This document shows, in pieces, positions 1,126-20,754 of a stretch of 64,000 bases of DNA. The stretch spans positions 1-64,000 of IMG/VR virus record IMGVR_UViG_3300035670_000056; one strand, written 5' to 3'. Origin of the DNA: a virus. Its lineage: Duplodnaviria > Heunggongvirae > Uroviricota > Caudoviricetes. The stretch's first letter is position 1. Each line of letters begins with the position of its first letter. The notes under the pieces are model-generated. The model was not told where the DNA came from. It saw only the letters and a program-made list of their open reading frames with translations, and did no database searches. Made by a program: the position numbers and the translations under genes.

Positions 1126-1154
1126 CCCCACAGTAAAATGTGGGGTTTTTGTTT
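1126..1154 (+). terminator. Rho-independent terminator
   Basis: CCCCACAgtaaaaTGTGGGG hairpin followed by TTTTTGTTT. Confidence 0.7.
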
Positions 1155-1180
1155 GACAGTCAAATATACTATGATATGAT
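1153..1180 (+). promoter_or_regulatory. Sigma70-like early promoter (TTGACA-16-TATGAT); ATG 8 nt downstream
   Basis: -35 TTGACA at 1153-1158, -10 TATGAT at 1175-1180, start codon at 1189. Confidence 0.55.
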
Positions 1181-1188
1181 ATAATAAT

Positions 1189-1752
1189 ATGGATCTCAAC
1201 GCTAAAAAAATCAACGAAAGCTTAGAAAAATCTGAAGCTACTGAATTGAAACCTTGGTACAGAACCAACAAATATGGCGATTGGATATTGGATCATATTG
1301 CCTATGGATGGCGTGTATATTACAAATATTATGATGTAAAACGATGGATTATTAGTACCTATCAACGTATGCGTTATGGTGTAAGTGATAGTGAATGTTG
1401 GAGTTTGGACTGGACACTTACAAATTTTATTCTTCCCAGACTAAAGCATTTCAAGAAGATTAACGTTCATACACACCCACCGCAGGTTACACCTGAACAA
1501 TGGGACAAAATCTTGGATGAATTGATTTGGACATTTGAATATATGCATGATGAAGAAAAGTTCAATCCAACTCCTATGTTTAGATATGAAGTTGACAATA
1601 TGGATGATTACTTTAAAAATATCAAACGTGAAAAAACACCAGAACAAAAACAAGCTTGGGATGAATATCTGAAGAAAAATGAAGAACTAGAAGAACGTCG
1701 TAAAAAAGGAATGTTATTGTTCGCTGAATATTATTCCCAACTTTGGGACTGA
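1189..1752 (+). CDS. Hypothetical protein (187 aa)
   Basis: ORF with its own promoter; no motif recognised. Confidence 0.5.
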   Translation: MDLNAKKINESLEKSEATELKPWYRTNKYGDWILDHIAYGWRVYYKYYDVKRWIISTYQRMRYGVSDSECWSLDWTLTNFILPRLKHFKKINVHTHPPQVTPEQWDKILDELIWTFEYMHDEEKFNPTPMFRYEVDNMDDYFKNIKREKTPEQKQAWDEYLKKNEELEERRKKGMLLFAEYYSQLWD

Positions 1753-2559
1753 CTTACAGTTATTTTGGTGATTTCTAAAAAAGTTAGGCGTTTTGTTACT
1801 AGAAAATCCACATTTATAACAAGAAATTAATTCTAGTTTTCTTTGTTTTTTATTAGGATTTTCTTTGCAGAAATCAAAATGCCATCTTTTCATATTTTTA
1901 TATTCGCCGATTTTATGACAATATATACATTCTGTATTCAAATTGTTTTGAGGACGTAACTTCATTTTTTCCACGTGTTGTTTAGTTTTTTTTACTCCAG
2001 ACTGCGTTTGACTCATTCTAATTTTGGTTTCCACCGAATGTTTTCTGCCTGAAAATCCTCTTTTAACATTCGGGTTGTTTTTATAATATGAAATTAAACT
2101 ATCTTTTCTTTTTGTTATATGTTCAATAGACTGTTTTTTACCAAGTATTTTTAGTCTTTGTTTTTGAATTGATTCTTCAGATTTACTTTTGCCATACAAT
2201 GGATGATTTTTACCTACGAAATATTTTTTTGATAAAAAAACAAATTTTTCAAAAAGTCTGCTATTTAAATACCTAACTTTTTTTCCATTTTTTGTTTTAA
2301 CAAACGCCGACATACACTTGAATGCATATGCTGTTTTTTTGTTTCGGTAAGATTTCCATAACAAATAATGAGCTAAAAAATGAGCTCTAGCTGTTAAATT
2401 AACCAAATTATCGTCGTGGTTTAATCCGCCCATAGATCTTGGAAGAATATGATGTTCTTCAAAATATTTGTTTGTGTCTATTGGATGTTTTTTGTAATAC
2501 TCAATAAATTTAACATATCTGTTGTAATAATGATAATTTTTTATTTTATATGTTTTCAT
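1714..2559 (-). CDS. HNH homing endonuclease with C-terminal Cys-rich (zinc-finger-like) region
   Basis: HHILPRSMGG...N..LTARAH HNH motif, plus CIYCH...CYKCGF. Start taken at the internal Met so that the promoter of the downstream plus-strand gene stays clear; the ORF track extends to 2622. Confidence 0.6.
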   Translation of the reverse strand: MKTYKIKNYHYYNRYVKFIEYYKKHPIDTNKYFEEHHILPRSMGGLNHDDNLVNLTARAHFLAHYLLWKSYRNKKTAYAFKCMSAFVKTKNGKKVRYLNSRLFEKFVFLSKKYFVGKNHPLYGKSKSEESIQKQRLKILGKKQSIEHITKRKDSLISYYKNNPNVKRGFSGRKHSVETKIRMSQTQSGVKKTKQHVEKMKLRPQNNLNTECIYCHKIGEYKNMKRWHFDFCKENPNKKQRKLELISCYKCGFSSNKTPNFFRNHQNNCKSVPKLGIIFSEQ

Positions 2560-2587
2560 ATATAATATATAGTTAAGATTTATGGGA

Positions 2588-2616
2588 TTGACAAAAAATA
2601 TATACGATTGTAGTAT
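2588..2616 (+). promoter_or_regulatory. Sigma70-like promoter (TTGACA-17-TAGTAT); ATG 6 nt downstream
   Basis: -35 at 2588-2593, -10 at 2611-2616. Confidence 0.5.
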
Positions 2617-2622
2617 TATCAT

Positions 2623-3147
2623 ATGAATGAATTAAGAAATTATACACCACCGGATTGGAACGAATGGTTTTTGCAAGGAGTTTATTGGGTTGCTAGTAAA
2701 TCCAAAGATCCCAAGACCAAGATTGGCGCTCTTATTGTAAAAGACAAACGAATCATTTCCACAGGCTACAATGGTATTCCTATCGGAGTAGATGACAAAA
2801 ATGAATTACGTCACGAAAGACCAGAAAAATACAAATGGTATGAACACGGAGAACGTAATGCAATTTACGCAGCCGCCAAGTATGGTATAAACACCGATGG
2901 CGCAATTCTTTATACCAATGCTTTACCTTGTGCTGACTGTGCTAGGGGAATCATCCAAAGTGGAATCAAATGTGTTTATATACATCAACAATTCAATGAT
3001 TTGTGTAATACAACACAAAGAGAACAATGGAAGGGACATGACAATGCCACTTTCACAATGTTTAATGAATCTGGGGTAGAAGTACATACCGTTGATAGAA
3101 TTTTAGGATGTAAAGCATATTTTGACGGAAAAGTGTTTGACATTTAA
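2623..3147 (+). CDS. dCMP deaminase (zinc-dependent cytidine/deoxycytidylate deaminase)
   Basis: HGERNAI (HxE) and PCADCA zinc-binding motifs; the size is typical of T4 Cd or ComEB-like enzymes. Confidence 0.75.
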   Translation: MNELRNYTPPDWNEWFLQGVYWVASKSKDPKTKIGALIVKDKRIISTGYNGIPIGVDDKNELRHERPEKYKWYEHGERNAIYAAAKYGINTDGAILYTNALPCADCARGIIQSGIKCVYIHQQFNDLCNTTQREQWKGHDNATFTMFNESGVEVHTVDRILGCKAYFDGKVFDI

Positions 3148-3165
3148 AAAAAGGTGTGGTAGAGT
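3137..3165 (+). promoter_or_regulatory. Sigma70-like promoter (TTGACA-17-GTGTGGTAGAGT)
   Basis: -35 at 3137-3142, extended -10 TGG TAGAGT at 3160-3165, ATG at 3172. Confidence 0.5.
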
Positions 3166-3941: not shown

Positions 3942-4122
3942 AGAAATTAAATCTAAATATCCTCATATGGAATTTAGGGGTAAACAGCGTCAGTTAAACG
4001 ATAGAACCGTGATTGAAGCGTACAATCATGCAATTAATCAGAACTTTTTTTATAGTTTTGATGAAGATTTCTTTTGGTTTCCCGGTCAAATTCCCGACTA
4101 CAAACTGCCAAAAGTATCTTGA
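3922..4122 (+). CDS. Hypothetical protein (66 aa); start taken at the internal Met of ORF 3838..4122
   Basis: ORF track; overlap logic only. Confidence 0.25.
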   Translation: MNIHVPEEIKSKYPHMEFRGKQRQLNDRTVIEAYNHAINQNFFYSFDEDFFWFPGQIPDYKLPKVS

Positions 4123-4147
4123 CTTGTTATAAAGTGTGTGGTAATCT
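4119..4147 (+). promoter_or_regulatory. Sigma70-like promoter (TTGACTTGTTATAAA...GTGGTAATCT)
   Basis: -35 at 4119-4124, -10 at 4142-4147. Near-identical to the promoter at 9082. Confidence 0.55.
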
Positions 4148-5357: not shown

Positions 5358-5690
5358 ATGAAAAATACTCGTAGATATCGTGAGAAGTGTAATGCTAACA
5401 CTATTGGTATATCTTCTACATACGCAAATAAGCGTATCCATGACTTTCTCAAGGGTTGGGGAACTATATCCAAAGATGGTAAATCTGTTCTTTGGGATAC
5501 GTGGCGACCATTAACCAAAAATCAACGTGAAAAGGTGGATCGTCATTGGAAGAAAAATCCTCCGTTCTCAAAGATCATTTTCCCAGTTATCAACAAAGTA
5601 ATGCCTACTATAAGTGCCGCCGAAATTGCGTCTGTCCAACCAATGATGAATCCACCTTCTGGTTCTAAATTTTTCGTTGACTTTCCGTAA
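5358..5690 (+). CDS. Basic hypothetical protein (110 aa)
   Basis: ORF track. Confidence 0.35.
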   Translation: MKNTRRYREKCNANTIGISSTYANKRIHDFLKGWGTISKDGKSVLWDTWRPLTKNQREKVDRHWKKNPPFSKIIFPVINKVMPTISAAEIASVQPMMNPPSGSKFFVDFP

Positions 5691-5704
5691 AGTCGTGGTA
5701 AATT
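5677..5704 (+). promoter_or_regulatory. Sigma70-like promoter (TTGACT-16-GTCGTGGTAAATT)
   Basis: -35 at 5677-5682, -10 at 5699-5704, ATG at 5711. Confidence 0.5.
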
Positions 5705-5710: not shown

Positions 5711-6808
5711 ATGAAGATTGACATAGAAAAGGTTGACCTCACCCAATTTATGGTGCATGAACATTCACTTAATGGTGAAATCGTTCATTTGATTCAACCT
5801 CAACATATCGGCACCAAGTGGACTCAAGACAACAAGCACATGCGTAGTGTGGTTGTGAATTATGCCGGTGAAGTTATCAGTGCAGGCTTTCCTAAGTTTA
5901 CTAACTGGGGTGAGAATCCTGATCACTTTCCTGTTCCTAACTCATTAAAGAATGCAACTGTGGTTGAAAAGCTTGATGGTTCATTGTTGATTGTTAGCAA
6001 GTATAATGGACAATATATTCTGCGTACCCGTGGAACTGTTGATGCTTCTACTATGGCTAATGGCCACGAACTTGAAATTTTCAAGAACACTATTTTGTCC
6101 AAGTTGAGTCACATATACACCAGTGATACTTGGAATTATTCTTGGCTTTTTGAGTGGGTTAGCCCTATCAACAAGATTGTTCTCAATTATGGTGATGAAC
6201 CTGATTGGTATTTGGTTGGTGTGATTAACCACGATGACTACTCACTTGCAAATCAATTCTCTTTGGATAGATATGCAACGAACCTAGAACTAAAGCGTCC
6301 TCCTACTTATACTTTTTCTGATGTTCAAGATCTGTTAAAGGATGTTGACCAATGGAGAGGTAAGGAAGGTGTGGTTGTTTATTCAAAGAATGACCAAATG
6401 CTTCACAAATGTAAATCTGAATGGTATCTAAAATTACATTATTTAAAGTCTGAGCTAAGCAATATAGAAAAAGTATTAGATGTTTGGCTAGAACAATGTA
6501 TGCCTGACTATCAGACTTTCTATAACTATATCTTTACCACTTTTGATTACGAATTGGCTGAGCAGTGCCGTGGTATGATTAGCCGTATTTGTGATGCAAA
6601 GAAGGAAGTGGATATGATTGTGGTTGGTATGAATGAGTTTGTGAATAACCGACTCAAGATTCTACCTACTCGTAAGTTACAGGCTGAGCAAGTAATTTCA
6701 GCTTATGGTAATACTAATAGAGCTTCATTTTTGTTCAAAATTTTGGATAATCGTCCATTGGGCAAGGAAGAATATAAAAAGTTACTATTTCAAGTGTTGA
6801 AGAATTAA
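5711..6808 (+). CDS. RNA ligase, T4 Rnl1-like
   Basis: Nucleotidyltransferase motif I VEKLDGSL (KxDG), motif IV-like KEGVVVYSKNDQMLHKCKSEWY resembling the T4 Rnl1 C-region, and 365 aa versus 374 aa in T4 Rnl1. Confidence 0.6.
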   Translation: MKIDIEKVDLTQFMVHEHSLNGEIVHLIQPQHIGTKWTQDNKHMRSVVVNYAGEVISAGFPKFTNWGENPDHFPVPNSLKNATVVEKLDGSLLIVSKYNGQYILRTRGTVDASTMANGHELEIFKNTILSKLSHIYTSDTWNYSWLFEWVSPINKIVLNYGDEPDWYLVGVINHDDYSLANQFSLDRYATNLELKRPPTYTFSDVQDLLKDVDQWRGKEGVVVYSKNDQMLHKCKSEWYLKLHYLKSELSNIEKVLDVWLEQCMPDYQTFYNYIFTTFDYELAEQCRGMISRICDAKKEVDMIVVGMNEFVNNRLKILPTRKLQAEQVISAYGNTNRASFLFKILDNRPLGKEEYKKLLFQVLKN

Positions 6809-6851: not shown

Positions 6852-6913
6852 TTGTATATGTATGTGTGATAGTCAATAGTGGCTATCATAACACACAAAC
6901 ACAAAGGAAAAAT

Positions 6914-7129
6914 ATGGCAGATAATAATAAAACTCCCTACGAACTACGTTGGGAAATTCTAAAAGAAATGCTCTCTATTACCAGAGAAGAGTGGGCTACC
7001 AAAAAAGAGTTAGCTCACTACAACGCTGAAAAAAGCGGTAAATCAGTTGAATATATCGGTGATATTCCGTTACACGATGCGTTGCAACGTGCAGAAAATG
7101 TATATACATCGTTTATTTGTAAGAAGTAA
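6914..7129 (+). CDS. Small hypothetical protein (start at the internal Met; the track ORF 6836..7129 would overlap the terminator)
   Basis: MADNNKTPYELRW... Confidence 0.35.
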   Translation: MADNNKTPYELRWEILKEMLSITREEWATKKELAHYNAEKSGKSVEYIGDIPLHDALQRAENVYTSFICKK

Positions 7130-7150
7130 TCACTTAAAGAACTAACACTA

Positions 7151-7184
7151 ACCCCGCTATTAATTTAGTGGGGTTTTATTTTTT
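7151..7184 (+). terminator. Rho-independent terminator (copy 1 of a repeated hairpin)
   Basis: CCCCGCTAttaattTAGTGGGG followed by TTTTATTTTTTG. Confidence 0.65.
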
Positions 7185-7220
7185 GTATATATTTATATAT
7201 AACACAAAAAATCATAAATT

Positions 7221-7424
7221 ATGAGCAATAAACTTAACGAAACATTTCAAAAGCATTTAGGTCTTTTCCACAAAAAGATTAATGAAGTAACTACAGAAGG
7301 CACTGAACCAGCTGGTTTAAAAGGCGCTACGGTAATTGATGTAATCACATCAAGTGATGGCAAAGTACATCTTCGATTGGCAGCTGCAAATTCAACCCAG
7401 TTATATGACGCTGTATTAGTATAA
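7221..7424 (+). CDS. Small hypothetical protein (67 aa) flanked by two near-identical terminator hairpins
   Basis: ORF track. Confidence 0.4.
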   Translation: MSNKLNETFQKHLGLFHKKINEVTTEGTEPAGLKGATVIDVITSSDGKVHLRLAAANSTQLYDAVLV

Positions 7425-7450
7425 AAATACACATCACATTAAAATTAAAA

Positions 7451-7484
7451 ACCCCACTATTAATTTAGTGGGGTTATTTGTTTA
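7451..7484. terminator. Bidirectional rho-independent terminator (copy 2 of the repeated hairpin)
   Basis: CCCCACTAttaattTAGTGGGG with an A-run on the left and TTATTTGTTT on the right. It ends both 7221..7424 (+) and 7485..7808 (-). Confidence 0.65.
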
Positions 7485-7808
7485 TTAGTCTTTCTTGTGT
7501 GGTTTGGTTGGTCTATCACCATCTTTTGTTGGAGGAGGACCATCATGTTTTGGACCTTTTGGTCCGCCTGGTGGTGGTCCAAAACTTCTCATTAATTTAC
7601 GATCATCATCACTAATTTTGGTACGTTCTTCTTTATCTAACTTACCATCTTTATTTACATCATATTTAGCAATCAAAGCAGTACGTTGTGCTTTTTGTTC
7701 CTCTGTCAACTTTGGACGAGGAGGACGATTGCCTGGAGGTGGACCTTTTGGACCTTCTTGAGCATTTAGAGCAAATGCTGCGGTTAATACTAATAGATAC
7801 TTTAACAT
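7485..7808 (-). CDS. Secreted proline-rich protein with an EF-hand-like calcium-binding loop
   Basis: N-terminal signal peptide MLKYLLVLTAAFALNAQ, PPGxxPP repeats, and DVNKDGKLDKEE matching the DxNxDGxIxxxE EF-hand loop. Confidence 0.5.
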   Translation of the reverse strand: MLKYLLVLTAAFALNAQEGPKGPPPGNRPPRPKLTEEQKAQRTALIAKYDVNKDGKLDKEERTKISDDDRKLMRSFGPPPGGPKGPKHDGPPPTKDGDRPTKPHKKD

Positions 7809-7908
7809 ATATTTCCTTTGTTTACGTAACCACCATTGATTACATTACATATATACTATATCAATCACACCAAATAAACATCTTTTACCTACCCTTTACA
7901 ATTTTCTC

Positions 7909-7937
7909 TTGACTTTATAACAAGTAGATGTTAATCT
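7909..7937 (+). promoter_or_regulatory. Sigma70-like promoter (TTGACTTTATAACAA...TAATCT)
   Basis: -35 at 7909-7914, -10 at 7932-7937, ATG at 7944. Confidence 0.45.
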
Positions 7938-7943: not shown

Positions 7944-8402
7944 ATGAATAATACAATTTATATCGCCGTTGGCTTGCCTGGAAGTGGTAAGTCAACCTAT
8001 GCAAAGAACTTCATTAAAGGAAAAGATATTGAATATCTCAGTAGTGATGAACTACGTGCTGTATTTGGTAAAAGTGAAGAAGATCAAACGGTAACGCCAC
8101 TTGTTTTTGGCCATATCAAAAGAAAGGTTGACGAATACCTAAAGAATGGTAAAAATGTATTGGTAGACGCAACCAGCGTAAATCGCAAGGAACGAGCTGA
8201 CTACATCAATTCAGCCAAGAAGTATGGTGCAAAAGTAGTTGCTCTTGTATTCAAGATGGATCGTGCTGGATTAATTGCAAGAAACCAAAAGAGGGGACAA
8301 GAGGGTGGCAGAGTTGTACCTGATTGGGTAATTGACAAGATGTTGGCAAAGTATGAAGAACCTTCTACCAGTGAAGGTATTGATGAGGTAATTTATGTTT
8401 GA
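7944..8402 (+). CDS. P-loop kinase, polynucleotide 5'-kinase (Pnk)-like
   Basis: Walker A GLPGSGKST very close to the N-terminus, as in the T4 Pnk kinase domain; 152 aa. Confidence 0.6.
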   Translation: MNNTIYIAVGLPGSGKSTYAKNFIKGKDIEYLSSDELRAVFGKSEEDQTVTPLVFGHIKRKVDEYLKNGKNVLVDATSVNRKERADYINSAKKYGAKVVALVFKMDRAGLIARNQKRGQEGGRVVPDWVIDKMLAKYEEPSTSEGIDEVIYV

Positions 8403-9042
8403 AAGACCACTAAAATTAATTCATAATGAAGATCACCGAGTGTATTTCACCAGTGATACTCATTTTAACCACGACAAGGTTTTTATCTACGAATCCCGTG
8501 GATATAAGAACCGTTATGAACACGATGATGCTTTGATTGCAAAGATCAATGAAGTGGTGCGTCCAGAAGATACACTAATTCATCTAGGTGATTTTTGTCT
8601 TAATATTACCCCGCCTGAGTTCAATGAAATTCTGGCTAGAATCAATTGTCGTAATATTGCTTATATTTGGGGTAATCATAACAGCTGTATTCGTAAGAAT
8701 TATGAAGACGTAGTTGCACTTGAGTATCAGCGTAAGGATATTGAAGTATACCCATATGCAGTTGGTAAGCTTACTTATCTGGGTTATTACAAGGAAGTGA
8801 TTGTGAATGGTCAAATGATTGTTCTACATCACTATCCTCACCAAATCTTTAATCAAATGCAAAAAGGTGCTTGGCAATTGAGTGGTCACAGCCACTACAC
8901 CAATCCAACCACTCAACTTGATAGTACAGACAATAAAATTCTGGATGTAGGTTGGGATGGTCACGGTAAGCCGCTGTCATTCCCAGAAATTCAGAAGATT
9001 ATGATGAATAAGAGTCACGTTAAGCAAGATAAACATCATTAA
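8395..9042 (+). CDS. Calcineurin-like metallophosphoesterase (candidate 2',3'/3'-phosphatase partner of the kinase)
   Basis: FTSDTHFNH, HLGDFC (GDxx) and WGNHN motifs; overlaps the kinase gene by 8 nt. Confidence 0.6.
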   Translation: MFERPLKLIHNEDHRVYFTSDTHFNHDKVFIYESRGYKNRYEHDDALIAKINEVVRPEDTLIHLGDFCLNITPPEFNEILARINCRNIAYIWGNHNSCIRKNYEDVVALEYQRKDIEVYPYAVGKLTYLGYYKEVIVNGQMIVLHHYPHQIFNQMQKGAWQLSGHSHYTNPTTQLDSTDNKILDVGWDGHGKPLSFPEIQKIMMNKSHVKQDKHH

Positions 9043-9049
9043 GTATACA

Positions 9050-9085
9050 AATCCCCTCCGTAAAAAGAGGGGATTTTTGTTTTGA
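9050..9085 (+). terminator. Rho-independent terminator
   Basis: ATCCCCTCcgtaaaaaGAGGGGAT followed by TTTTTGTTTTG. Confidence 0.7.
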
Positions 9086-9111
9086 CTTGTTATAAAACCC
9101 GTGGTAGATTG
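9082..9111 (+). promoter_or_regulatory. Sigma70-like promoter (TTGACTTGTTATAAAACCCGTGGTAGATT)
   Basis: -35 at 9082-9087, -10 at 9106-9111, ATG at 9120. The terminator's T-run overlaps the -35 box. Confidence 0.55.
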
Positions 9112-9119: not shown

Positions 9120-9596
9120 ATGTCAAAACCATACATTCACGCTCAAAGTTCAGTTCGTAAGTTCGGCGGTAAGCCAGAAGACTACGAACCAATTCATGCT
9201 TTTATGGATTGTAGTAAGGGTGCCATTGCAGATAACCGACATCGTGCTCTAACACACAATAGTTGGTTTCTTAGTAATATTCTGGAACGAGTAAAGTTTG
9301 CCAATAGTGGACCTGAAACTAGTGATCATCGTTTTCCTACTATTATTAATAGTGATGGACGCAGTGTAAGTGTGCGGGATATTGGTGAACAACACTGCCT
9401 GGAAGACTTTGCTAATAAGTTTATTCCTTCAGCCCAAGACTATTTGGCTGAAATGGAGTTCAAGAGTTGGATGCAGAATGGCATTTCACATCCTCCCAGC
9501 TTTGTGAAGATTGATGAAGGTCGTAAATCCCGTGCTAAAAATGGTTTGACTTCTAAAACTTTCGGTGGTAGTATTAAAAATGTAATCGGAGACTAA
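9120..9596 (+). CDS. Hypothetical protein (158 aa)
   Basis: ORF track plus promoter. Confidence 0.45.
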   Translation: MSKPYIHAQSSVRKFGGKPEDYEPIHAFMDCSKGAIADNRHRALTHNSWFLSNILERVKFANSGPETSDHRFPTIINSDGRSVSVRDIGEQHCLEDFANKFIPSAQDYLAEMEFKSWMQNGISHPPSFVKIDEGRKSRAKNGLTSKTFGGSIKNVIGD

Positions 9597-9609
9597 TAAA
9601 ACAAAACAT

Positions 9610-9996
9610 ATGAAGGAATCACTTAAGAAAATTGAAGAGCTAAAGAATCAACTCAACACAGTTAAGTCAGAACTCCAGAAGGAGTTTAAGGCTGAACTAA
9701 AGAAGATCTTTGTTGCTAATCCTACGCTGGATAGCATTGAGATGTATCTTAATAACCACGAATTTAATGACGGTGACGCAACCTCATTCTATATTGGATA
9801 CGAAGATATGAATCTTATGATTGATGGTGAAGAAGTTGAACGTGAATGGGATAATGCAACTAAGGAATATAAGCCAAATCCCTTGCTTGAATCACTAATT
9901 GAACTATTTGGTGATACTCAGTGTATCCACGAAGACCTATATGGTGACGAATGGGAACATCTGTCTATTACCCGTGAAGACGTTCTAAAGTATTAA
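9610..9996 (+). CDS. Hypothetical protein with N-terminal coiled coil (128 aa)
   Basis: ORF track. Confidence 0.45.
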   Translation: MKESLKKIEELKNQLNTVKSELQKEFKAELKKIFVANPTLDSIEMYLNNHEFNDGDATSFYIGYEDMNLMIDGEEVEREWDNATKEYKPNPLLESLIELFGDTQCIHEDLYGDEWEHLSITREDVLKY

Positions 9997-11527: not shown

Positions 11528-11546
11528 GTGGTAGGATAAGTGGAGA

Positions 11547-11580
11547 AACCCGCTAGAGAAATCTGGCGGGTTTTTTGTTG
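11547..11580 (+). terminator. Rho-independent terminator
   Basis: CCCGCTAGAgaaaTCTGGCGGG followed by TTTTTTGTTG. Confidence 0.7.
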
Positions 11581-11606
11581 ACTTTGTTTAAACTACGTGG
11601 TAGAGT
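11578..11606 (+). promoter_or_regulatory. Sigma70-like promoter (TTGACT-17-GTGGTAGAGT)
   Basis: -35 at 11578-11583, -10 at 11601-11606. An AAGGAG lies just before the ATG at 11616. Confidence 0.5.
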
Positions 11607-11991: not shown

Positions 11992-12723
11992 ATGAAGAAA
12001 TGGATTATATATAAAACAACTTGTACAGTCAATAATAAAATATACATAGGTCAACATAAAACTGATAACATTGATGATGGATACATTGGTAGTGGAAAAC
12101 TAATTACCAGTGCAATTAAAAAATATGGAAAAAATAGTTTTAACCGAGAAATATTAGAAGAATGTTTTACATTTAACGACGCTAGAGAAAAAGAAGAATT
12201 TTATATTAAAAAATTTAATTCTACAAATAGAGACATAGGTTATAATATAACTCCATATGCATGGGGAGGTCAACCTATGACAGCTGAAACAAGATTAAAA
12301 ATAAGTCAACTAAATAAAGGAAAAACTCGTTCGATTGAAACGAGAGAAAAAATGAGAAAAGCTAAAACAGGTACCACTTGGTCAGTACAACATAAATTAA
12401 ATCAAATTAAATCTAAAATCGGTAAAAAATGGTATCATAATCCCATAACACTAGAATCTAAAAAATTCAAAGATGATGAGGGTATACCAAATGGATGGTT
12501 GTTTGGTAGAGGCAATACTCAAAAAATAGGACCTGAAAGGAAAAAACAATCTTTTTCTAAAGATGCACTTGAAAACATCAGAAATGCAAATCTAAATCCG
12601 GAAAAAAGAAGAAAAACATCTTGTACTTTGAAGGGACATAGTGTATCGTTAGAGACGAGAGAAAAAATAAAAAATAGTTTAAAAAAATTTTATGAGAAAA
12701 CTAGCGTCAATCAAAAAAATTGA
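11992..12723 (+). CDS. GIY-YIG homing endonuclease
   Basis: KIYIGQH...GYIGSGK GIY-YIG motif and basic K/R-rich C-terminal DNA-binding tail. Free-standing between a hypothetical gene and the ligase gene. Confidence 0.7.
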   Translation: MKKWIIYKTTCTVNNKIYIGQHKTDNIDDGYIGSGKLITSAIKKYGKNSFNREILEECFTFNDAREKEEFYIKKFNSTNRDIGYNITPYAWGGQPMTAETRLKISQLNKGKTRSIETREKMRKAKTGTTWSVQHKLNQIKSKIGKKWYHNPITLESKKFKDDEGIPNGWLFGRGNTQKIGPERKKQSFSKDALENIRNANLNPEKRRKTSCTLKGHSVSLETREKIKNSLKKFYEKTSVNQKN

Positions 12724-13702
12724 AGAAATCAAGTTAATTGAAGGAGCAGATAAAATTTGCGCATATCGTGTGGGGGGTTGGTGGGTAGTAGATTCTGTGA
12801 CTAAATACAAGGTGGGTGATTTGGCTGTTTATTACGAAATTGACAGCTTTTTGCCGATCCGCCCTCAATTTGAATTTCTACGCAAGAGTAGCTTCAAGCG
12901 TATGGGTTCTAGTGAGGGATTTCGTCTCAAGACCATTAGGTTGCGTGGACAAATTAGTCAAGGTCTATTGACTCCAATTCCAGAGGGTATTAGTAATCCA
13001 AAGGAAGGTGATGATTTGACTGAGGCTCTTGATATTGTCAAGTATGAACCTCCTATTCCCGCTCAATTGGCTGGAAAGATCAAGGGAACATTTCCTAGCT
13101 TTATTCCAAAGACTGAGGAAATTCGTATTCAGAACTTTGAGAGTGAAGTTGGATTTAGTCCAGTTGGTGAACGTGCTTATGTAACTGAAAAGTTGGATGG
13201 TACTAGTTTCACTTGTTACTTCAAGGATGGAGTATTTGGGGTTTGTGGCCGTAATTGGGAGTTGTCTGAAACTGATGACAATAGTCTATGGCGTATGGCC
13301 AAGGTGCTTGAATTGAAGGACAAGATGACTAAACACGGCAAGAATATTGCTTTGCAGGGAGAACTAATTGGTGCTGGTATCAATGGTAATTTGTATGGAA
13401 TGAGTGACCACAAGTTGTTCTTCTTTACTGGTTATGACATTGATAAGGGTCGCCGTATGTTCTTTGATGAACTTGAGTGGGTATTGTTTGGTTTGCAATT
13501 GCAGATGGTGCCTGTACTTGAGAAGTATGGGTTTGTGATTCCAAATGAAAACAATATTGTTGACTATATGTTGAAGTATGCTGAAGGTAAGAGTGTATTG
13601 AATATGGAAGTTGATAGGGAAGGTGTGGTTGTACGTGGTCTTGAGAAGGAGTTTAGTTTCAAGGCTATTAGCAATACGTATCTTCTAGGAAGCAAGGACT
13701 GA
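12692..13702 (+). CDS. ATP-dependent nucleic-acid ligase (RNA ligase-like) with an N-terminal extension
   Basis: Motif I TEKLDGTSF (KxDG) around aa 178 and motif IV-like REGVVVRG...FKAIS. Overlaps the 3' end of the GIY-YIG gene by 32 nt. Confidence 0.5.
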   Translation: MRKLASIKKIEEIKLIEGADKICAYRVGGWWVVDSVTKYKVGDLAVYYEIDSFLPIRPQFEFLRKSSFKRMGSSEGFRLKTIRLRGQISQGLLTPIPEGISNPKEGDDLTEALDIVKYEPPIPAQLAGKIKGTFPSFIPKTEEIRIQNFESEVGFSPVGERAYVTEKLDGTSFTCYFKDGVFGVCGRNWELSETDDNSLWRMAKVLELKDKMTKHGKNIALQGELIGAGINGNLYGMSDHKLFFFTGYDIDKGRRMFFDELEWVLFGLQLQMVPVLEKYGFVIPNENNIVDYMLKYAEGKSVLNMEVDREGVVVRGLEKEFSFKAISNTYLLGSKD

Positions 13703-14686: not shown

Positions 14687-14692
14687 GCTGTT

Positions 14693-14720
14693 GACATTTT
14701 GAAAAAAGGTGGTAGATTGG
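14693..14720 (+). promoter_or_regulatory. Sigma70-like promoter (TTGACA-16-GGTGGTAGATT) embedded in the terminator hairpin
   Basis: -35 at 14693-14698, -10 at 14715-20, ATG at 14731. Confidence 0.45.
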
Positions 14721-14757
14721 TACTTGTGATGAGCACCAAATCTACCACCTTTTTTAG
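14704..14757. terminator. Strong bidirectional hairpin terminator
   Basis: AAAAAAGGTGGTAGATTgg...ccAAATCTACCACCTTTTTT. Confidence 0.65.
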
Positions 14758-15577
14758 CAATCAAATCAAAAATGGACTTCTCAAGCTTGAGAAGAAAAAC
14801 AAGTCTGAGTCTCACCTTTCTAGGGTTGACCACTTGGTTGCATCGTTGACTGACATTGGCATCAACAAGCTTCCTCAATTTGACAGTGTGGATGAATTCC
14901 TCAAGGAAGTGAATGATGTTAATAGTGATGCACATAAAATTGACAATGTGCTTGCGTTGCCTGAAAACATCAAGCATCAAACTGGTCGTGGTGAGTTGTC
15001 TATGTTTTTGATGCTTGGTGATTCACGCAAGAGCAATATCAAACGTGGTGAAACTGGTGATGTAACACTTAATAACAAGTCGTATGAATTGAAGAAGGAA
15101 AGTGGCATTATTGATTTTGCTATCAAAACGAGGGGTGAAGTCACTGATCGTTACAATGAACTTGTTATGATTCGTTCGTTTTGTGATAAGATTTTGAATG
15201 CCTATTTTGTTGACAGTAACGTTACCAAATATTTCAATCAATATTTTCGTAAGAAGATCACTGAGTTTTCCAGTGCTGATTTTGAATTGTTTGATAATTT
15301 GTTGGTTATGATCAAATCTGATACTGATATTCGTAACAAGATTACTGGTACTATTTTGATTGATGTTATCAATAACTTTTCAGCTTACGAATGGCGTAAG
15401 AAAGTTGCGCAACTGATTGTTAAAAGTTATAGTGGTGGTGTTATTGTGTATCGTAAGAGCAAGAAGGGTAATCGTAAAGTAAAGCGAGTGGATAGCAAGT
15501 ATGAATTGCTTGATGCTAAGAATGTTATTGTGCAGAATCTTACACTGGGTAATATTCAGTTAAAGATTATTAATTAA
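14731..15577 (+). CDS. Hypothetical protein; possible PD-(D/E)xK-type nuclease fold
   Basis: Spacing of ...GELSMFLMLGD...(22 aa)...YELKK is compatible with an E...D...ExK motif. Start taken at the Met 10 nt after the -10 hexamer (the track ORF starts at 14699). Confidence 0.35.
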
Positions 15578-16277
15578 ATTCTATTATTGTTTCTTTATCT
15601 GATTTGAGTTTGGGATATTCTATAATGGGATAATTCAAACTTTTAATCAGATTTTTCTTTTCCACTTTGCTTCCCAGTGGATAGATATATCTTTCTTTAA
15701 CTGACAATTCTTTGATTTTAAATGGTCTAGGTAATACTTCTATTAATTTGTTATAGTTAAACGTACCATATTTGTTAAATAGTGTACGTGAATGTTGCCA
15801 TTTAACACCACCATCAAAACTAACAATATAACCACTGGTACCTTTGGGTCTTTCAATATTTTGATACAGCCAATTAGTAGCTTGATATATGGTACCAATG
15901 TGTCCAGCATCAGGATCCGCATAACTGATCAAACATTTTATTTCAGGATGATTGAGTTTGATATATTTCAAACATTGACCAATAACCCAACTTTCAGTAT
16001 TTTTACCCAAATCATCTTCTACCCACAATCGTTTCAACTCCCATAAATTGGAATGATTTAGTAAAGGTGATACACTTCTAGCCACATTAGCACCAGCAGT
16101 TGGTCCAAATACAACCGCCCCAACCAGCTTAGGCGCTTCAAAAAATACACTACCTTTGCTTTTGTCGAAGATTCCTATACACAACTCAGCTATGGTCCAT
16201 TTGTGTGTATAATGATGTTTAACAATCAATTCTTTGGCAGTCAAATTGTTTACTTTTTCAACATAAAGATTTTCCAT
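15570..16277 (-). CDS. Hypothetical protein (235 aa); possible Mom-like/GNAT-fold modification enzyme
   Basis: Motifs VKHHYTHKW, VVFGPTAGANVARS and YADPDAGHIGTIYQATNW. The Mom assignment rests on my unverified recollection of the Mu Mom family. Confidence 0.4.
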   Translation of the reverse strand: MENLYVEKVNNLTAKELIVKHHYTHKWTIAELCIGIFDKSKGSVFFEAPKLVGAVVFGPTAGANVARSVSPLLNHSNLWELKRLWVEDDLGKNTESWVIGQCLKYIKLNHPEIKCLISYADPDAGHIGTIYQATNWLYQNIERPKGTSGYIVSFDGGVKWQHSRTLFNKYGTFNYNKLIEVLPRPFKIKELSVKERYIYPLGSKVEKKNLIKSLNYPIIEYPKLKSDKETIIEFN

Positions 16278-16283: not shown

Positions 16284-16312
16284 ATCATATCATACCCACC
16301 TCGAAATTTCAA
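16284..16312 (-). promoter_or_regulatory. Sigma70-like promoter on the minus strand (TTGAAA-17-TATGAT) for 15570..16277
   Basis: Reverse complement reads TTGAAAtttcgaggtgggtatgaTATGATatatttATG; ATG 6 nt after the -10 hexamer. Confidence 0.45.
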
Positions 16313-16328: not shown

Positions 16329-16357
16329 TTGACTTTTTATAAAGTCGCTGGTATTAT
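16329..16357 (+). promoter_or_regulatory. Sigma70-like promoter (TTGACTTTTTATAAAGTCGCTGGTATTAT)
   Basis: -35 at 16329-16334, -10 at 16352-16357. Divergent from the minus-strand promoter 20 nt away. Confidence 0.55.
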
Positions 16358-16760: not shown

Positions 16761-17271
16761 ATTCAAATCTGAGGTTTATAGTCTGGGAGAAATTTCTCTT
16801 AAAGAACTGAAACGATACAAGATGATTAATGACTATGTTTACAATCAAGTTAGAGTTGGCGGATGTGGGGAATTGATTGAACGAATCATATTGGATTATT
16901 TGACCACCAAAAGCGGTTATACCAATATCAAAAAGAGTCCAGCAAACAGCAAGTGGGATTTTGAATTAACAGATGATCCCACCGTTCGTGTAGACGTTCG
17001 TCGTGTATCTCCGACAAATACAATTTATCTTGGACATACATCAGGCAATCTTAAAAAATTGATTTGGGAAGACAAAGCCGAAGTTCTCAACAACGGTGGG
17101 TATTTTTGTATCAAGCTGTGTGAGGATAAAATGGTGTTGTTTTATATTTCAGCAAAAAGTTTGCTCAATTATGTGTATGAACATCCTAATTTCGAGTTAA
17201 AAAACGAAGTACCTGTAAAAATTCTCAACGAAAAATTTTGGAAGACGCTCAACGTTCCGCTTGACAATTAA
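16750..17271 (+). CDS. Hypothetical protein (173 aa)
   Basis: ORF track; 11-nt overlap with the deaminase gene. Confidence 0.45.
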   Translation: MKIEFKSEVYSLGEISLKELKRYKMINDYVYNQVRVGGCGELIERIILDYLTTKSGYTNIKKSPANSKWDFELTDDPTVRVDVRRVSPTNTIYLGHTSGNLKKLIWEDKAEVLNNGGYFCIKLCEDKMVLFYISAKSLLNYVYEHPNFELKNEVPVKILNEKFWKTLNVPLDN

Positions 17272-17421
17272 AGAAACCAATGTTAAGATGATTTTGTTGT
17301 GAGGAACTGGTTCACAACTCTTAATTTAAATCCAAAAAGCACTTACGCTGTCTGTGATAAAAATTATTAATTAGACAATTATGTCATAACCCAAATCCAG
17401 TAATAAAAGGAAAATAATAAT

Positions 17422-18603
17422 ATGATCGGTACAAATGAAAAGACAATTAAGTCCACAACTGAAAACTGGGAACTCTCCAATGTAAAGAAGTTTCTCGATA
17501 GCGTCTTTATCGACGATAGTTTTCAAAGTCCTGCACGTTGGGACGGTGCAAAGTCACGCAGTTATCTTGATTCGCTATTTAAGGGAATCGCTCCAAGCAA
17601 GTTTATTTTTGCTGATGTAGTTGAATGCCGGAAGAATTCACTGTCAACGGAAGATATCAACTATTATTCCGATTGGCTTTCCGAGGGAGCTAACTATCTT
17701 AACCTTGATAGCAACAACCGTTTTACTACCCTACGATTGTTGTTTACTAACCAACTGGAATTGCGTGCTGGAACATATTGTGACAATCTAGGCAATAAGT
17801 TTACTATCAAGCGTGAACAGCGGTGGGCTGATCTAAACGAATCAGTTAAGGATTTTATTCTTACTCGTACAATTACACTGGAAGTGTATACCAAGGCTAC
17901 TCGTTCACAGTTGAGTGACATTTTCATCGCTGTAAATAGTGGATGTGAATTGAACGCTGCTGAAAAGCGTAACGCTATTATTAGTCCCATCTCAAAGATT
18001 TGTCGGGAATTGGGTGAGAACTATTACAAGAATTTCAGCACCCGTAGTTGGATTCTTTCAATCTTTTCAGAACAGGATTATAACCGTCGTAAGATTGACT
18101 CACAGTTTGCTGGTATGGCATTCTTCCATAGTTTTGGATTCAAGAAGAACATCAGTGACGGTATTCTTTATAGTGAATATGAAACTGGCTCTGAGCTAAA
18201 TAGCAAGTCAAATTGTTTTAAGAATGACGTAGATGAATTCTTTAATACGTGGGTTGCTCCAAATGAAGATATCTTCAAGGAAAGTATGAAGCTAAGTAAG
18301 CAAACTGTGTTTGACTTGTTTGTGTTTTATCACCGTCATCGTAATCAGATCAAGGATGTGAATATGTTTCTGAAAAAGTTTGTGGAAATCAACACTCTTT
18401 TGAAGAAGAATCCTGAAGCTGACCACAAGGTTGGCGACAAAAAGATGACATACGCAGCGTTGCTCCGTGGTCGTGAAACCCCAAAGTGTCAGAAGCGATA
18501 TGAACTGTTGGCCAATGGATTGGTTAAGTCAAAGGTAATGACAGACGAAAACGTAACAGCAGTTTATAAGTATAAAACAAAAATCAATACAGTGTCAGCT
18601 TAA
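17422..18603 (+). CDS. DUF262 (ParB/Srx-like)-related protein with a degenerate DGQQR box
   Basis: ARWDG...YLNLDSNNRFTTLRLLF matches the layout of the DUF262 QR...W...DGQQRLTTL region, but reads DSNNR. SD-like AAAGGAAAA lies upstream. Confidence 0.35.
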   Translation: MIGTNEKTIKSTTENWELSNVKKFLDSVFIDDSFQSPARWDGAKSRSYLDSLFKGIAPSKFIFADVVECRKNSLSTEDINYYSDWLSEGANYLNLDSNNRFTTLRLLFTNQLELRAGTYCDNLGNKFTIKREQRWADLNESVKDFILTRTITLEVYTKATRSQLSDIFIAVNSGCELNAAEKRNAIISPISKICRELGENYYKNFSTRSWILSIFSEQDYNRRKIDSQFAGMAFFHSFGFKKNISDGILYSEYETGSELNSKSNCFKNDVDEFFNTWVAPNEDIFKESMKLSKQTVFDLFVFYHRHRNQIKDVNMFLKKFVEINTLLKKNPEADHKVGDKKMTYAALLRGRETPKCQKRYELLANGLVKSKVMTDENVTAVYKYKTKINTVSA

Positions 18604-18612: not shown

Positions 18613-18650
18613 AAGTCAAGGACGATGAAAATCTCCTTGACTTTTTTCTT
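18613..18650 (+). terminator. Rho-independent terminator
   Basis: GTCAAGGAcgatgaaaatcTCCTTGAC followed by TTTTTTCTTG. Confidence 0.65.
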
Positions 18651-18666
18651 GCGCCGTGGTAATATT
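18638..18666 (+). promoter_or_regulatory. Sigma70-like promoter (TTGACT-17-GCCGTGGTAATAT)
   Basis: -35 at 18638-43 overlaps the terminator's right arm; -10 at 18661-66; ATG at 18676. Confidence 0.5.
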
Positions 18667-18675
18667 ATAAAAGAT

Positions 18676-19767
18676 ATGAAACTACCTATGTTATTCGCTC
18701 GTACCAATACGGGTGCTATTCAAACTTGGACCATTGAAATTAGTGGTAACAAATATCGTACACATTATGGACAAGTTGATGGGGCTCTCCAGACAACTGA
18801 ATGGACCATTTGTGAGGGTAAAAATACTGGCAAGAAGAATGCTACTTCTGCCGAAGATCAAGCTACAAAAGAAGCCAAAGCCACTTGGAAGAAAAAGAAA
18901 GAAAGTGGTTATGTTGAAAATATAACCAAGATTGATGAAATCTCTTTCACCGAACCTATGTTGGCAAAGAACTATGATGACTACAAAGATGACTTGAAGT
19001 ATCCTGTTTATAGCCAACCTAAGTTGGATGGTATTCGTTGCGTTGTAAAGCGTGATGGTATGTGGAGTCGTAATGGTAAAGCCATTATTTCAGCTCCCCA
19101 TGTACTAGTTGCATTGAAACCATTCTTTGATAGGTTTCCAGATGCAATTCTTGATGGTGAATTGTATGCTGATAAGTTTGCCAATGACTTTAATGCTATT
19201 TGTAGTTTGGTAAAGAAGACTAAACCTACCGTTGAAGATTTGGCTGAGAGTGAAAAGAATATTCAATACTGGATATATGACTGGATTTTACCGAAGACTT
19301 TTGGTGACCGTAATAGTGACATTACTACTTATATTGTTAATAACAATGTGGTTCGTCGTGTTCCGACTCACCTTGTGGACACGATTACACATTTAAATGA
19401 GTTGTATGAAAAGTATGTTGACGAAGGATACGAAGGTCAGATGGTTCGTACTGACGGACCTTATGAAAACAAGCGTAGCAAACACCTCCTCAAGCGTAAA
19501 GAGTTTCAGGATTCTGAATTCAAAATTCTTGACATTGTTGAGGGTGTAGGAAACAAGAGCGGTATGGCTGGTCATATGGTATTCAAGAACCACAAGGGTA
19601 TTGAGTTCCATAGCAACATTAAGGGTGACCGTGAATATTTAAAGGATCTTCTAAAGAACAAGAATAAGTATATTGGAAAGAGTGCTACGGTGAAGTATTT
19701 TAATCTTACACCAGATGATGAAATTCCACGTTTCCCTTATACAATTGCTATTCGGGATTATGAATAA
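18676..19767 (+). CDS. ATP-dependent DNA ligase
   Basis: Motif I QPKLDGIRC (KxDGxR), motif-V-like GYEGQMVRT...KRSKHLLKRKEF, and an OB-like C-terminal region. The track start at 18625 lies inside the terminator, so the Met at 18676 is used. Confidence 0.65.
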   Translation: MKLPMLFARTNTGAIQTWTIEISGNKYRTHYGQVDGALQTTEWTICEGKNTGKKNATSAEDQATKEAKATWKKKKESGYVENITKIDEISFTEPMLAKNYDDYKDDLKYPVYSQPKLDGIRCVVKRDGMWSRNGKAIISAPHVLVALKPFFDRFPDAILDGELYADKFANDFNAICSLVKKTKPTVEDLAESEKNIQYWIYDWILPKTFGDRNSDITTYIVNNNVVRRVPTHLVDTITHLNELYEKYVDEGYEGQMVRTDGPYENKRSKHLLKRKEFQDSEFKILDIVEGVGNKSGMAGHMVFKNHKGIEFHSNIKGDREYLKDLLKNKNKYIGKSATVKYFNLTPDDEIPRFPYTIAIRDYE

Positions 19768-20458
19768 GAATCCAATTTTTTACAGATTTAATTCTTTTCA
19801 TACAAAGAGCCCAAACATTACTTCTATATAAATTATATTTTGTATATAACTCATTCATTGTACAATGCTCTGTAATATTTGTTTTTCTATTATAAAATGT
19901 ATATTTCATTGAATTGTACAATGGATGATTTTTTCCAAGTCTGGTTTCTTTAAATTCAATATTAGCCCATTGTTTTTTAGAAATATCACTGGCAATCTTT
20001 CTATTCTTTGGATTTTTAAAAAAATTAATTCTACCCAATCTAATTTTTTCAATGCTATGGATACTGTGATCACCTCCACAAGATTCAAAATTTAAATTGT
20101 AATTATTATTTTGATTAGACTTTGCTATGTCTAAATATTTTTGTTCTACATCTTTTAAATTTTCAACTAAACATTTTTCTATTATAACAAATTCAAAATT
20201 TATTTCACCGTGTAAATTGAAAGCGTTTTGAAGATAGTCGTTTATATGTTTATTGTGTCTAAGAAGGGATTTATGTTTTCTCCATCTTTTGTAGATATTT
20301 TTACTACTTCCTACATAATATTTATTATCAATCTTGTTTATTATTTTGTAAATTCCGCTTATTTTCCCAATATTTCTGCATTGACTTTTCATTGAGTCTT
20401 TGTTTGTGTCGTTGATAATATTTTTTTGCACGATTTCGTTGTTGTTCAAGTAGTTCAT
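19748..20458 (-). CDS. GIY-YIG homing endonuclease
   Basis: GIYKIINKIDNKYYVGSS...KRWRKH GIY-YIG motif. Convergent with, and overlapping, the 3' end of the DNA ligase gene. Confidence 0.65.
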   Translation of the reverse strand: MNYLNNNEIVQKNIINDTNKDSMKSQCRNIGKISGIYKIINKIDNKYYVGSSKNIYKRWRKHKSLLRHNKHINDYLQNAFNLHGEINFEFVIIEKCLVENLKDVEQKYLDIAKSNQNNNYNLNFESCGGDHSIHSIEKIRLGRINFFKNPKNRKIASDISKKQWANIEFKETRLGKNHPLYNSMKYTFYNRKTNITEHCTMNELYTKYNLYRSNVWALCMKRIKSVKNWILIHNPE

Positions 20459-20534
20459 CTTTTGTTCTATTTAATTTTTTTCTTCCCATAACAATAATAA
20501 ATAGTTTGTCATAGAATAAATTGTCAAAAAAATA

Positions 20535-20562
20535 TTGACATCAACCATTTTTGTTGTATCAT
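20535..20562 (+). promoter_or_regulatory. Sigma70-like promoter (TTGACA-16-TATCAT) inside the imperfect palindrome TTGTCAAaaaaatatTGACA
   Basis: -35 at 20535-40, -10 at 20557-62, ATG at 20569. Confidence 0.45.
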
Positions 20563-20568
20563 AAATTT

Positions 20569-20754
20569 ATGAATAAAACAAAATCAGTTAGAATTGTACT
20601 GGACATTGAATGGGAATGCGCAGATGATAGTGATCTTCCATCATTGTGGGATTGGAAACGTATCAAAATTCCTATGGATTTGACCAAGGTAAAGTATGTT
20701 GGTATCCAACAATCAAATGGACCTGAGAATGTAACAAATTGGATGGAAAATTAA
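20569..20754 (+). CDS. Small hypothetical protein
   Basis: Internal Met of ORF 20551..20754. Confidence 0.35.
   Translation: MNKTKSVRIVLDIEWECADDSDLPSLWDWKRIKIPMDLTKVKYVGIQQSNGPENVTNWMEN

Follow-up and report, generated by a model that had tools for sequence, protein, structure and literature searches.

Promoter-adjacent start codons and a predicted leaderless expression strategy in an uncultivated large-phage lineage

The DNA analysed here, positions 1 to 64,000 of the IMG/VR record IMGVR_UViG_3300035670_000056 (hereafter the window), belongs to a tailed phage: the minus strand between 24 and 64 kb codes for large proteins of the tail fibre and baseplate, in which collagen repeats and Laminin_G_3 domains occur. 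According to the window annotation, the first 24 kb carry about 45 mostly small genes on the plus strand, among them genes for RNA and DNA ligases, nucleotide-processing enzymes and an SPFH protein (Table 1). In this block of non-structural genes, 15 sites have the anatomy of sigma70-type promoters, and most of them lie only a few nucleotides before the ATG of an open reading frame (ORF). We consider it likely that these sites are promoters and that the first gene behind most of them is expressed by a leaderless mechanism; this reading is well supported in silico, with the predicted 5' ends deduced from promoter geometry.

The strict form of the motif, TTGACN-N13-15-TGNTANNNT, occurs 12 times in the window, always on the plus strand and between 1153 and 18637, whereas 200 dinucleotide shuffles searched on both strands average 1.07 matches and never exceed 5. 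Three looser sites (2588, 20535 and 16312–16284 on the minus strand) bring the total to 15; they lack a TGn element but still have good -35 and -10 hexamers. The -35 hexamer is TTGAC(A/T) at 14 of the 15 sites and TTGAAA at one, the spacer measures 16 bp at four sites and 17 bp at eleven, TAnnnT is present at all 15, and TG lies one base upstream of the -10 hexamer at 12. The consensus reads TTGAC(T/A), a 16–17 bp spacer (T-rich, then TAAAG, then GTGG), TGn and TAnnnT, often with an A-tract upstream. All 13 sites listed in the original prediction exist in the sequence, eleven at the coordinates given and two slightly displaced (TTGACA at 14691 rather than 14693, TTGACT at 18637 rather than 18638). 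The layout described there, with 16–18 nt between the -35 element and TGGTA, stands only in part: the 16–18 nt run from the -35 hexamer to TAnnnT and not to TGG, the literal pattern has no match, and TGG proper is found at nine of the 15 sites. The strict matches at 9546 and 17261 were absent from that list, and both fail to abut a gene start. The 4119 and 9082 promoters, described there as near-identical, are the same at 22 of 29 positions.

When the 15 sites are combined into a position-weight matrix whose threshold misses none of them, a scan of both strands of the 64 kb finds only two extra matches (54823 on the plus strand, 57208 on the minus strand) against a random expectation of 2.05. 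The motif is thus not scattered through coding sequence; a similar frequency there had been named beforehand as an outcome that would speak against the proposal. The sites are restricted to the non-structural plus-strand block, and three of them lie directly behind predicted intrinsic terminators. With their full sigma70-type anatomy, and an extended -10 element at most of them, the sites agree with the earlier assignment to sigma70 and are probably promoters for a holoenzyme carrying a sigma70-type factor. The consensus promoter, together with the gene content (ligases, kinase/phosphatase, dCMP deaminase, homing endonucleases and small ORFs), suggests that they may form an early class, expressed immediately after infection and read by unmodified host polymerase.

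Table 1. Promoter sites and selected genes in the window. Motifs are given as -35 hexamer, spacer length in bp and -10 hexamer, with the TGn triplet in brackets; gaps are counted from the -10 hexamer to the ATG; aa, amino acids.
Position	Strand	Motif	ATG	Gap (nt)	Gene or product	Context
1153–1180	+	TTGACA-16-TATGAT (TGA)	1189	8	187 aa ORF	directly behind predicted terminator 1125–1146
2588–2616	+	TTGACA-17-TAGTAT, no TGn	2623	6	dCMP deaminase	divergent from homing endonuclease gene 1714–2622 (-)
3137–3165	+	TTGACA-17-TAGAGT (TGG)	3172	6	70 aa ORF	overlaps 3' end of upstream gene
4119–4147	+	TTGACT-17-TAATCT (TGG)	4155	7	173 aa ORF	gap 6 nt in most relatives shown
5677–5704	+	TTGACT-16-TAAATT (TGG)	5711	6	T4 RnlA-type RNA ligase	
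7909–7937	+	TTGACT-17-TAATCT (TGT)	7944	6	AAA_33 kinase	
9082–9110	+	TTGACT-17-TAGATT (TGG)	9120	9	DUF6915 protein	directly behind predicted terminator 9049–9076
9546–9574	+	strict motif	9610			inside 3' end of ORF 9120–9596; predicted leader about 29 nt
11578–11606	+	TTGACT-17-TAGAGT (TGG)	11616	9	105 aa ORF	directly behind predicted terminator 11543–11576
14691–14718	+	TTGACA-16-TAGATT (TGG)	14729	10	282 aa ORF	-10 in hairpin 14702–14755
16284–16312	-	TTGAAA-17-TATGAT	16277	6	Mom-family protein	
16329–16357	+	TTGACT-17-TATTAT (TGG)	16368	10	130 aa deaminase-like ORF	
17261–17289	+	TTGACA-17-TAAGAT (TGT), strict motif	17422			hairpin 17296–17318 before the ATG
18637–18665	+	TTGACT-17-TAATAT (TGG)	18676	10	ATP-dependent DNA ligase	
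20535–20562	+	TTGACA-16-TATCAT	20569	6	61 aa ORF	
1714–2622	-				GIY-YIG/NUMOD3 homing endonuclease	antisense to block
2623–3147	+				dCMP deaminase	
5711–6808	+				T4 RnlA-type RNA ligase	
7944–9042	+				AAA_33 kinase and phosphoesterase	separate ORFs
11992–12723	+				GIY-YIG/NUMOD3 homing endonuclease	
12692–13702	+				Rnl2-type RNA ligase	
15570–16277	-				Mom-family protein	
18676–19767	+				ATP-dependent DNA ligase	
19748–20458	-				GIY-YIG/NUMOD3 homing endonuclease	antisense to block

Start codons, leaders and translation signals

As originally proposed, an ATG stands 6–10 nt past the -10 hexamer at nearly all sites (13 of 15), with gaps of 6 nt (six sites), 7 and 8 nt (one each), 9 nt (two) and 10 nt (three). 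Each of these 13 starts is in frame with an ORF of 61–365 aa; that all 13 are ATG discriminates weakly, since nearly all genes here use this codon. Sigma70-type polymerases prefer a start point about 7 nt after the -10 hexamer, and their usual range of start sites covers gaps of 6–9 nt. With a gap of 6 nt, the first base of the start codon is thus the seventh base past the -10 hexamer, the preferred sigma70 start. T at -1 and A at +1 are found together at 10 of the 13 promoter-adjacent starts. A Pribnow box 6–8 nt before the start codon is a recognised leaderless signature (PMC6028130; PMC12340547).

In nine of the 13 cases an in-frame stop codon lies 3–5 codons upstream of the ATG without an alternative start between them, and this stop is often the TAA or TAG of the -10 hexamer itself, as at the 5677 site, where the TAA of the hexamer is an in-frame stop four codons upstream of ATG 5711. 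Five genes have no other in-frame ATG within their first 100 codons. The kinase encoded from 7944 has its P-loop motif GLPGSG already at residues 10–15, so its start cannot lie further downstream, and the homology of RnlA and of the DNA ligase to their relatives (52–60% identity) begins at residue 1. By stops, P-loop position and N-terminal homology, the assigned ATGs are the real starts. This affects gene calling, as mechanical ORF extension misplaces at least five starts in the window (4074, 14699, 16326, 18625 and 20551), all in or upstream of promoters, in agreement with the original prediction. The idea that the -10 hexamer is selected as an in-frame stop was rejected as too weak, TAA or TAG making up 69% of hexamers at in-frame gaps versus 55% at other gaps (p = 0.02 on non-independent data).

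The claim that nearly every early gene looks leaderless does not hold, because only 13 of about 49 genes in the first 24 kb are promoter-adjacent. Each unit has just its first cistron next to the promoter; the remaining genes are internal cistrons, which follow at short distances and must be initiated internally. At least five units have leaders, namely 9546 to 9610, 17261 to 17422, 6852 to 6914, 7183 to 7221 and that of the minus-strand gene starting at 7808. An SD-like (Shine–Dalgarno-like) AAAGGAAA lies 5–10 nt before the ATG of three leadered genes (6890–6916, 7808–7835 on the minus strand and 17395–17424). Behind the 9546 promoter, an ATG-TAA mini-ORF is situated 5 nt past the -10 hexamer, at the predicted start point, and the real ATG 9610 follows about 24 nt on; both relatives in which the gene is present (loci L121 and L144) conserve this leader (9575–9612). 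The leader of the 17261 unit is about 126 nt long and ends in AAAGGAAAA before ATG 17422; Rfam recognises no family in the 64-kb window, this leader included.

Two leadered units behind terminators show TTGTATAT(G/A)T at 6852–6861 and 7183–7192, followed later by ...TAACACA(C)AAA, in place of the TTGAC motif, and these sites may represent a second promoter class; TTGTATATRT itself occurs four times against 1.7 expected, which is not significant. The near-identical terminator hairpins AACCCCGCTATTAATTTAGTGGGGTT and AACCCCACTATTAATTTAGTGGGGTT (7150–7175 and 7450–7475) bracket the 67-aa gene at 7221–7424, and the second is predicted on the minus strand as well, just past the 3' end of the gene at 7485–7808. 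A further hairpin of the form A6-hairpin-T6 at 14702–14755 (-29.3 kcal/mol, z -6.2) holds the -10 element of the 14691 promoter in its 5' arm, and its loop and 3' arm contain the ATG and the first nine codons of the next gene. Only read-through RNA can fold it, since a transcript from the 14691 promoter would carry only the 3' arm. This hairpin is probably a bidirectional terminator and may also stop antisense transcription from the Mom gene. The Mom promoter at 16312 on the minus strand and the plus-strand promoter at 16329 are divergent, with their -35 hexamers 16 bp apart.

Shine–Dalgarno (SD) sequences are absent from the promoter-adjacent genes, as had been stated, but this is not diagnostic of leaderless genes because the internal and late genes also lack them: an SD-like 4-mer precedes only six of 48. 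The whole genome is SD-independent. Of these 48 internal and late genes, 41 have T at -1, 35 have A at -5 and 29 have A at -2, and G is almost missing from the start context, which differs from the A-3/A-6/A-12/A-13 pattern of Flavobacterium (PMC6847099). T at -1 is also seen in many relatives. As a candidate late signal, the T4 late motif TATAAATA was rejected, since it occurs at about the frequency given by base composition (our own estimate). The sequence TATTTATA(A) lies 3–12 nt upstream of several late-gene ATGs on the minus strand (24583–24600, 27127–27145, 55560–55575 and 60781–60795); it has no constant distance to the ATG and was rejected as a fixed late-gene start signal, and it may belong to a late promoter or simply to the A/T-rich surroundings in which initiation takes place.

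Relatives, mechanism and alternative explanations

No DNA-level match for 1–20 kb was found by megablast against 50,697 phage records, and there is no close isolate. Relatives nevertheless number in the hundreds in IMG/VR and public metagenomes, on contigs of up to about 300 kb, with 158 ligase relatives confirmed in IMG/VR and 1428 RnlA homologues at E <= 1e-20. With no similar isolate and hundreds of metagenome relatives, the phage represents a lineage of large phages that has not been cultivated but is often met in the environmental metagenomes searched. Going by their sample numbers, many of the samples probably come from freshwater lakes and some possibly from soils or wetlands.

Of the 119 unique strict sites in the 147 IMG/VR loci, 118 lie on the gene strand; 54 are followed exactly 6 nt past the -10 hexamer by an ATG that opens an ORF of 40 aa or more, and 88 have such an ATG at 6–10 nt. 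Once the pattern is relaxed and the metagenome loci are included, the 6-nt gap is found in 188 of 321 unique promoter–ATG instances, although counts from relatives are not phylogenetically independent. Of 202 instances from relatives, 195 have a spacer of 16 or 17 bp and 103 have the TG extension. In a separate metagenome collection, the promoter is found in 45 of the 49 unique regions upstream of RnlA, in 43 of them with the 6-nt gap, across ten different TAnnnT hexamers.

At the sites orthologous to those of the genes starting at 3172, 4155, 7944, 16277 and 16368, TTGAC, TAnnnT and the gap are kept and other bases drift. Orthologues of the 7944 gene have TAATCT, TAATAT, TAAGAT, TATCTT or TAAACT, always 6 nt before the ATG; the minus-strand Mom promoter has TACACT, TACAAT or TATGAT, always with a 6-nt gap; and the 3137 site keeps TTGACA, TAnnnT and its 6-nt gap. 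The layout persists even where flanking genes, -10 hexamer sequence and discriminator differ. For the ligase and RnlA orthologues of close relatives, promoter and distance to the ATG are retained (10 nt at the 18637 site) next to unrelated sequence 5' of the -35 hexamer. In distant relatives (52–62% protein identity, 42–44% G+C content), only TTGACA, 16–17 nt, TAnnnT, 6–7 nt and ATG remain. This distribution of kept and drifting positions is that of a promoter whose predicted start point is the start codon, and the comparative data are the strongest support for the putative leaderless expression.

Three of the relatives with 42–44% G+C (loci L122, L131 and L134) have a TTGACA-16/17-TAnnnT-6/7-ATG head of their own at about half or more of their gene-strand ORFs; in L122 seven of eleven do, a density above that of the window. 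In the same loci a tRNA-Leu(UAA) ends 5 nt before the ATG of an 87-aa ORF (L122 1217–1300, L131 2015–2098, L134 1994–2077). Processing of the tRNA 3' end would leave a near-leaderless messenger RNA (mRNA) there, which recalls the tRNA punctuation of mitochondria. The 64-kb window contains no tRNA genes.

We propose a scenario in which (i) a sigma70-type holoenzyme would read the 15 sites that head transcription units of the non-structural plus-strand block; (ii) transcription of 13 units would begin at the first base of the start codon where the gap is 6–9 nt, or 1–4 nt before it where the gap is 10 nt; (iii) the first cistron would be translated from leaderless or near-leaderless mRNA, with ribosomes binding the 5'-terminal AUG; and (iv) downstream cistrons and late genes would be initiated internally without SD pairing, at starts that have T at -1 and A/T-rich surroundings. 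Each promoter-plus-ATG head of about 40 nt would then be a self-contained expression signal, coinciding with synteny breakpoints between relatives.

Several observations weigh against this scenario. The three sites with a 10-nt gap are taken to lie outside the usual start-site window, and they would likely give leaders of 1–4 nt. The 5' coding ends of the promoter-adjacent genes (first 25 or 40 nt) are not less structured than those of internal genes (Mann–Whitney p = 0.97 for the 40-nt window), so folding gives no leaderless-specific signal. No metagenome contig starts at the RnlA ATG, the nearest start lying 10–40 nt upstream; this search is uninformative, as it could not be told whether the collection includes RNA-derived assemblies. 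Among RnlA orthologues the promoter spacer is itself highly conserved, and an additional factor may therefore act there. Read-through transcripts, too, could yield the products of these genes, which would then be internal cistrons; initiation inside a message without SD sequences evidently works in this genome. Finally, if the host is a member of the Bacteroidota, its primary sigma factor is not expected to read the sites (PMC6847099).

The last point depends on the host, for which the indications are mixed. A scan of the genome-contig collection with RnlA found nothing. The best isolate matches are cyanophages for RnlB, the tail-fibre protein and the 17422 product, and alphaproteobacterial phages and the huge phage LR756511 for the ligase and the SPFH protein. 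LR756511, the best ligase match, was rejected as a proxy, as it has SD-like motifs before about half its ORFs and lacks the promoter–ATG architecture. Genes without SD sequences would suggest a host among the Bacteroidota or among cyanobacteria-like "group X" lineages (PMC6028130; PMC3160421). The Bacteroidota factor sigma-ABfr recognises -33 TTTG and -7 TAnnTTTG elements, the latter (TAHHTTTG) with near-invariant T-8, T-7, T-6 and G-5, and G at -10/-9 is virtually absent from Flavobacterium johnsoniae promoters (PMC6847099). The phage sites resemble these promoters in the distance from TTG to TA (about 20 nt) and, by prediction, in a start 6–7 nt after TAnnTT, but T-8, T-6 and G-5 are not conserved: TG at -6/-5 occurs at none of the 15 sites, and G at -10 or -9 at nine. 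Promoters of the Bacteroidota type were accordingly rejected, since TAHHTTTG is neither enriched nor positioned in the window and the 15 sites fail its invariant positions.

We regard it as unlikely that the leaderless promoters constitute a middle class read by a phage-supplied sigma70-family factor, or by an appropriated host sigma, in an SD-independent Bacteroidota host whose own sigma-A would recognise TTTG/TAnnTTTG. A spacer conserved well past the needs of sigma70 would suit such a factor, and huge phages are able to encode their own sigma70 (PMC7162821). The lack of SD sequences in the window genome and its relatives would suit such a host, given that non-SD ribosome-binding motifs occurred mostly in the FCB group in the GeneMarkS-2 survey (PMC6028130). 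However, a Pfam scan found no sigma-factor gene among about 48 window products, the motif is the plain housekeeping consensus, and three leadered genes do carry the SD-like motif described above. Cyanobacteria, moreover, use sigma70-type promoters. They are also SD-poor (PMC6028130; PMC3160421), and the cyanophage matches fit such a host instead. Very unlikely, in our view, is an origin of the short 5' ends as a by-product of genome compaction, with protein made mainly from read-through transcripts and the leaderless RNAs translated poorly or not at all. Internal SD-less initiation does operate for most genes, the promoters at 3137, 4119 and 5677 reach into the 3' end of the gene before them and no terminator intervenes, and T at -1 is common to promoter-adjacent and internal starts (10 of 13 and 41 of 48). 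Compaction alone, however, predicts no sharp 6-nt mode across divergent relatives with differing -10 hexamers; read-through should be low for the three units directly behind strong terminators; and leadered units occur where space was evidently allowed.

That the motif is a protein-binding or recombination site, a shuffling cassette that merely resembles a promoter, seems exceedingly improbable. The breakpoint at the motif between close relatives, which differ upstream of the -35 hexamer, and the conserved spacer would suit it, whereas the conserved positions are the sigma70 contacts (TTGAC, TG and TA...T), held 16–17 bp apart and in one orientation to the genes, and distant relatives retain nothing but these contact positions. 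Cassettes of the PeSL (promoter-early stem-loop) type are moreover functional promoters themselves (PMC4122927), so that the two roles are compatible.

The proposed promoter–ATG head would be a compact, portable expression module, and it suggests how promoter cassettes could act as shuffling points, as no ribosome-binding site must travel with the gene. If the 5' ends are confirmed, a whole lineage of phages, common in the environmental metagenomes searched, would use leaderless expression as a strategy and, as far as the SD-free internal genes indicate, would do so outside the two bacterial phyla in which leaderless genes predominate. The combination of SD-free genes with a sigma70 consensus offers a handle for host prediction. 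In its fullest form, which we hold to be quite unlikely, this abundant large-phage lineage would have truly leaderless first cistrons in most non-structural operons, heads of about 40 nt that also serve as joints for recombination, and an SD-independent host; were that host a member of the Bacteroidota, a phage sigma70-like factor would be needed, and the phage would carry a transcription and translation-initiation system orthogonal to that of its host.

Other features of the window

The start codon of the homing endonuclease gene at 1714–2622 abuts that of the dCMP deaminase gene (CAT|ATG at 2620–2625). Between 5711 and 9042 and between 12692 and 14686 lies a complete RNA-repair set, comprising RnlA, kinase, phosphoesterase, Rnl2-type ligase and nucleotidyltransferase, which, in parallel to T4, may serve to counter nucleases of the host that attack tRNAs or anticodons. 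On the minus strand, tandem repeats of 141 nt (47 aa; about six copies, about 79% identity) at 58754–59590 and 62830–63666 sit at the C-terminal ends of two adjacent large proteins, of which at least that encoded at 58742–60781 is a tail-fibre protein with Laminin_G_3. Paralogous genes of about 230 aa, alike also in the sequences before them, occur in two sets of three (39295–41363 and 55606–57727); these and, in the tail-fibre region, five genes in a row (344–455 aa, 27145–33332) with the appearance of paralogues by size suggest duplicated fibre or adaptor modules.

Comparison with known systems

Leaderless phage messages are already known, both singly and as a programme, and the layout described here would be a further case. 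The earlier view of it as unusual for a low-GC genome is not supported, as the Thermus phages phiYS40 and Lalka27a provide precedents with mainly leaderless transcription. The leaderless promoters of the Thermus phage phiYS40 reportedly, in work of 2007 by Sevostyanova et al., lack a -35 element. Most mapped transcripts of the lytic phages phiYS40 and Lalka27a are leaderless, with promoters directly before the ORF (PMC3594737; bioRxiv 10.64898/2026.04.20.719267), and the window phage is similar in the position of its promoters and in transcripts predicted to begin at the initiator codon. In contrast, the leaderless class of phiYS40 comprises middle and late transcripts (PMC3594737), whereas non-structural genes are concerned here, and the host phylum of the Thermus phages, Deinococcus-Thermus, is itself rich in leaderless genes. 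The window phage further differs from them in its full -35 and extended -10 consensus, its SD-free internal genes and in 5' ends that are predicted. In group C bacteria (Actinobacteria, Deinococcus-Thermus), the -10 element likewise lies 6–8 nt before the first ATG of the operon (PMC6028130; PMC12340547; PMC3160421). Their internal cistrons and leadered first genes, however, are modelled with ribosome-binding sites (PMC6028130), unlike the internal and late genes of the window. By these features the genome is a mix, with first genes as in group C and the rest as in group B or X.

Early genes of T4-type phages have leaders with SD sites. Their PeSL cassettes combine a terminator with an early sigma70-type promoter, stand between blocks of small non-structural genes and coincide with recombination breakpoints (PMC4122927; PMC2839356). 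Composite terminator–promoter units that may be comparable lie here at 1125–1180, 9049–9110 and 11543–11606, and also at 14691–14755, and the ligase and RnlA promoters show the context switch at the -35 hexamer between close relatives. The likeness is one of layout, and the cassette here ends 6–10 nt before the ATG. The lambda cI mRNA from PRM is leaderless, with its start point at the A of the AUG, and its translation relies on ribosomal recognition of the AUG at the 5' end (Brock et al. 2008, as cited in PMC5312081; PMC9031893). It and other single leaderless genes of phages and transposons share with the window a sigma70 promoter that starts, by prediction here, at the A of the AUG; they are isolated regulatory genes, whereas about 13 of 18 recognisable units are affected here and the layout is kept across a phage lineage. 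In other large phages the situation differs, as phiKZ has no leaderless messages and AR9 has long leaders (PMC8244752; PMC5312081). The window phage extends the known cases to a widespread environmental lineage, with a full -35 and extended -10 consensus and against an SD-free background.

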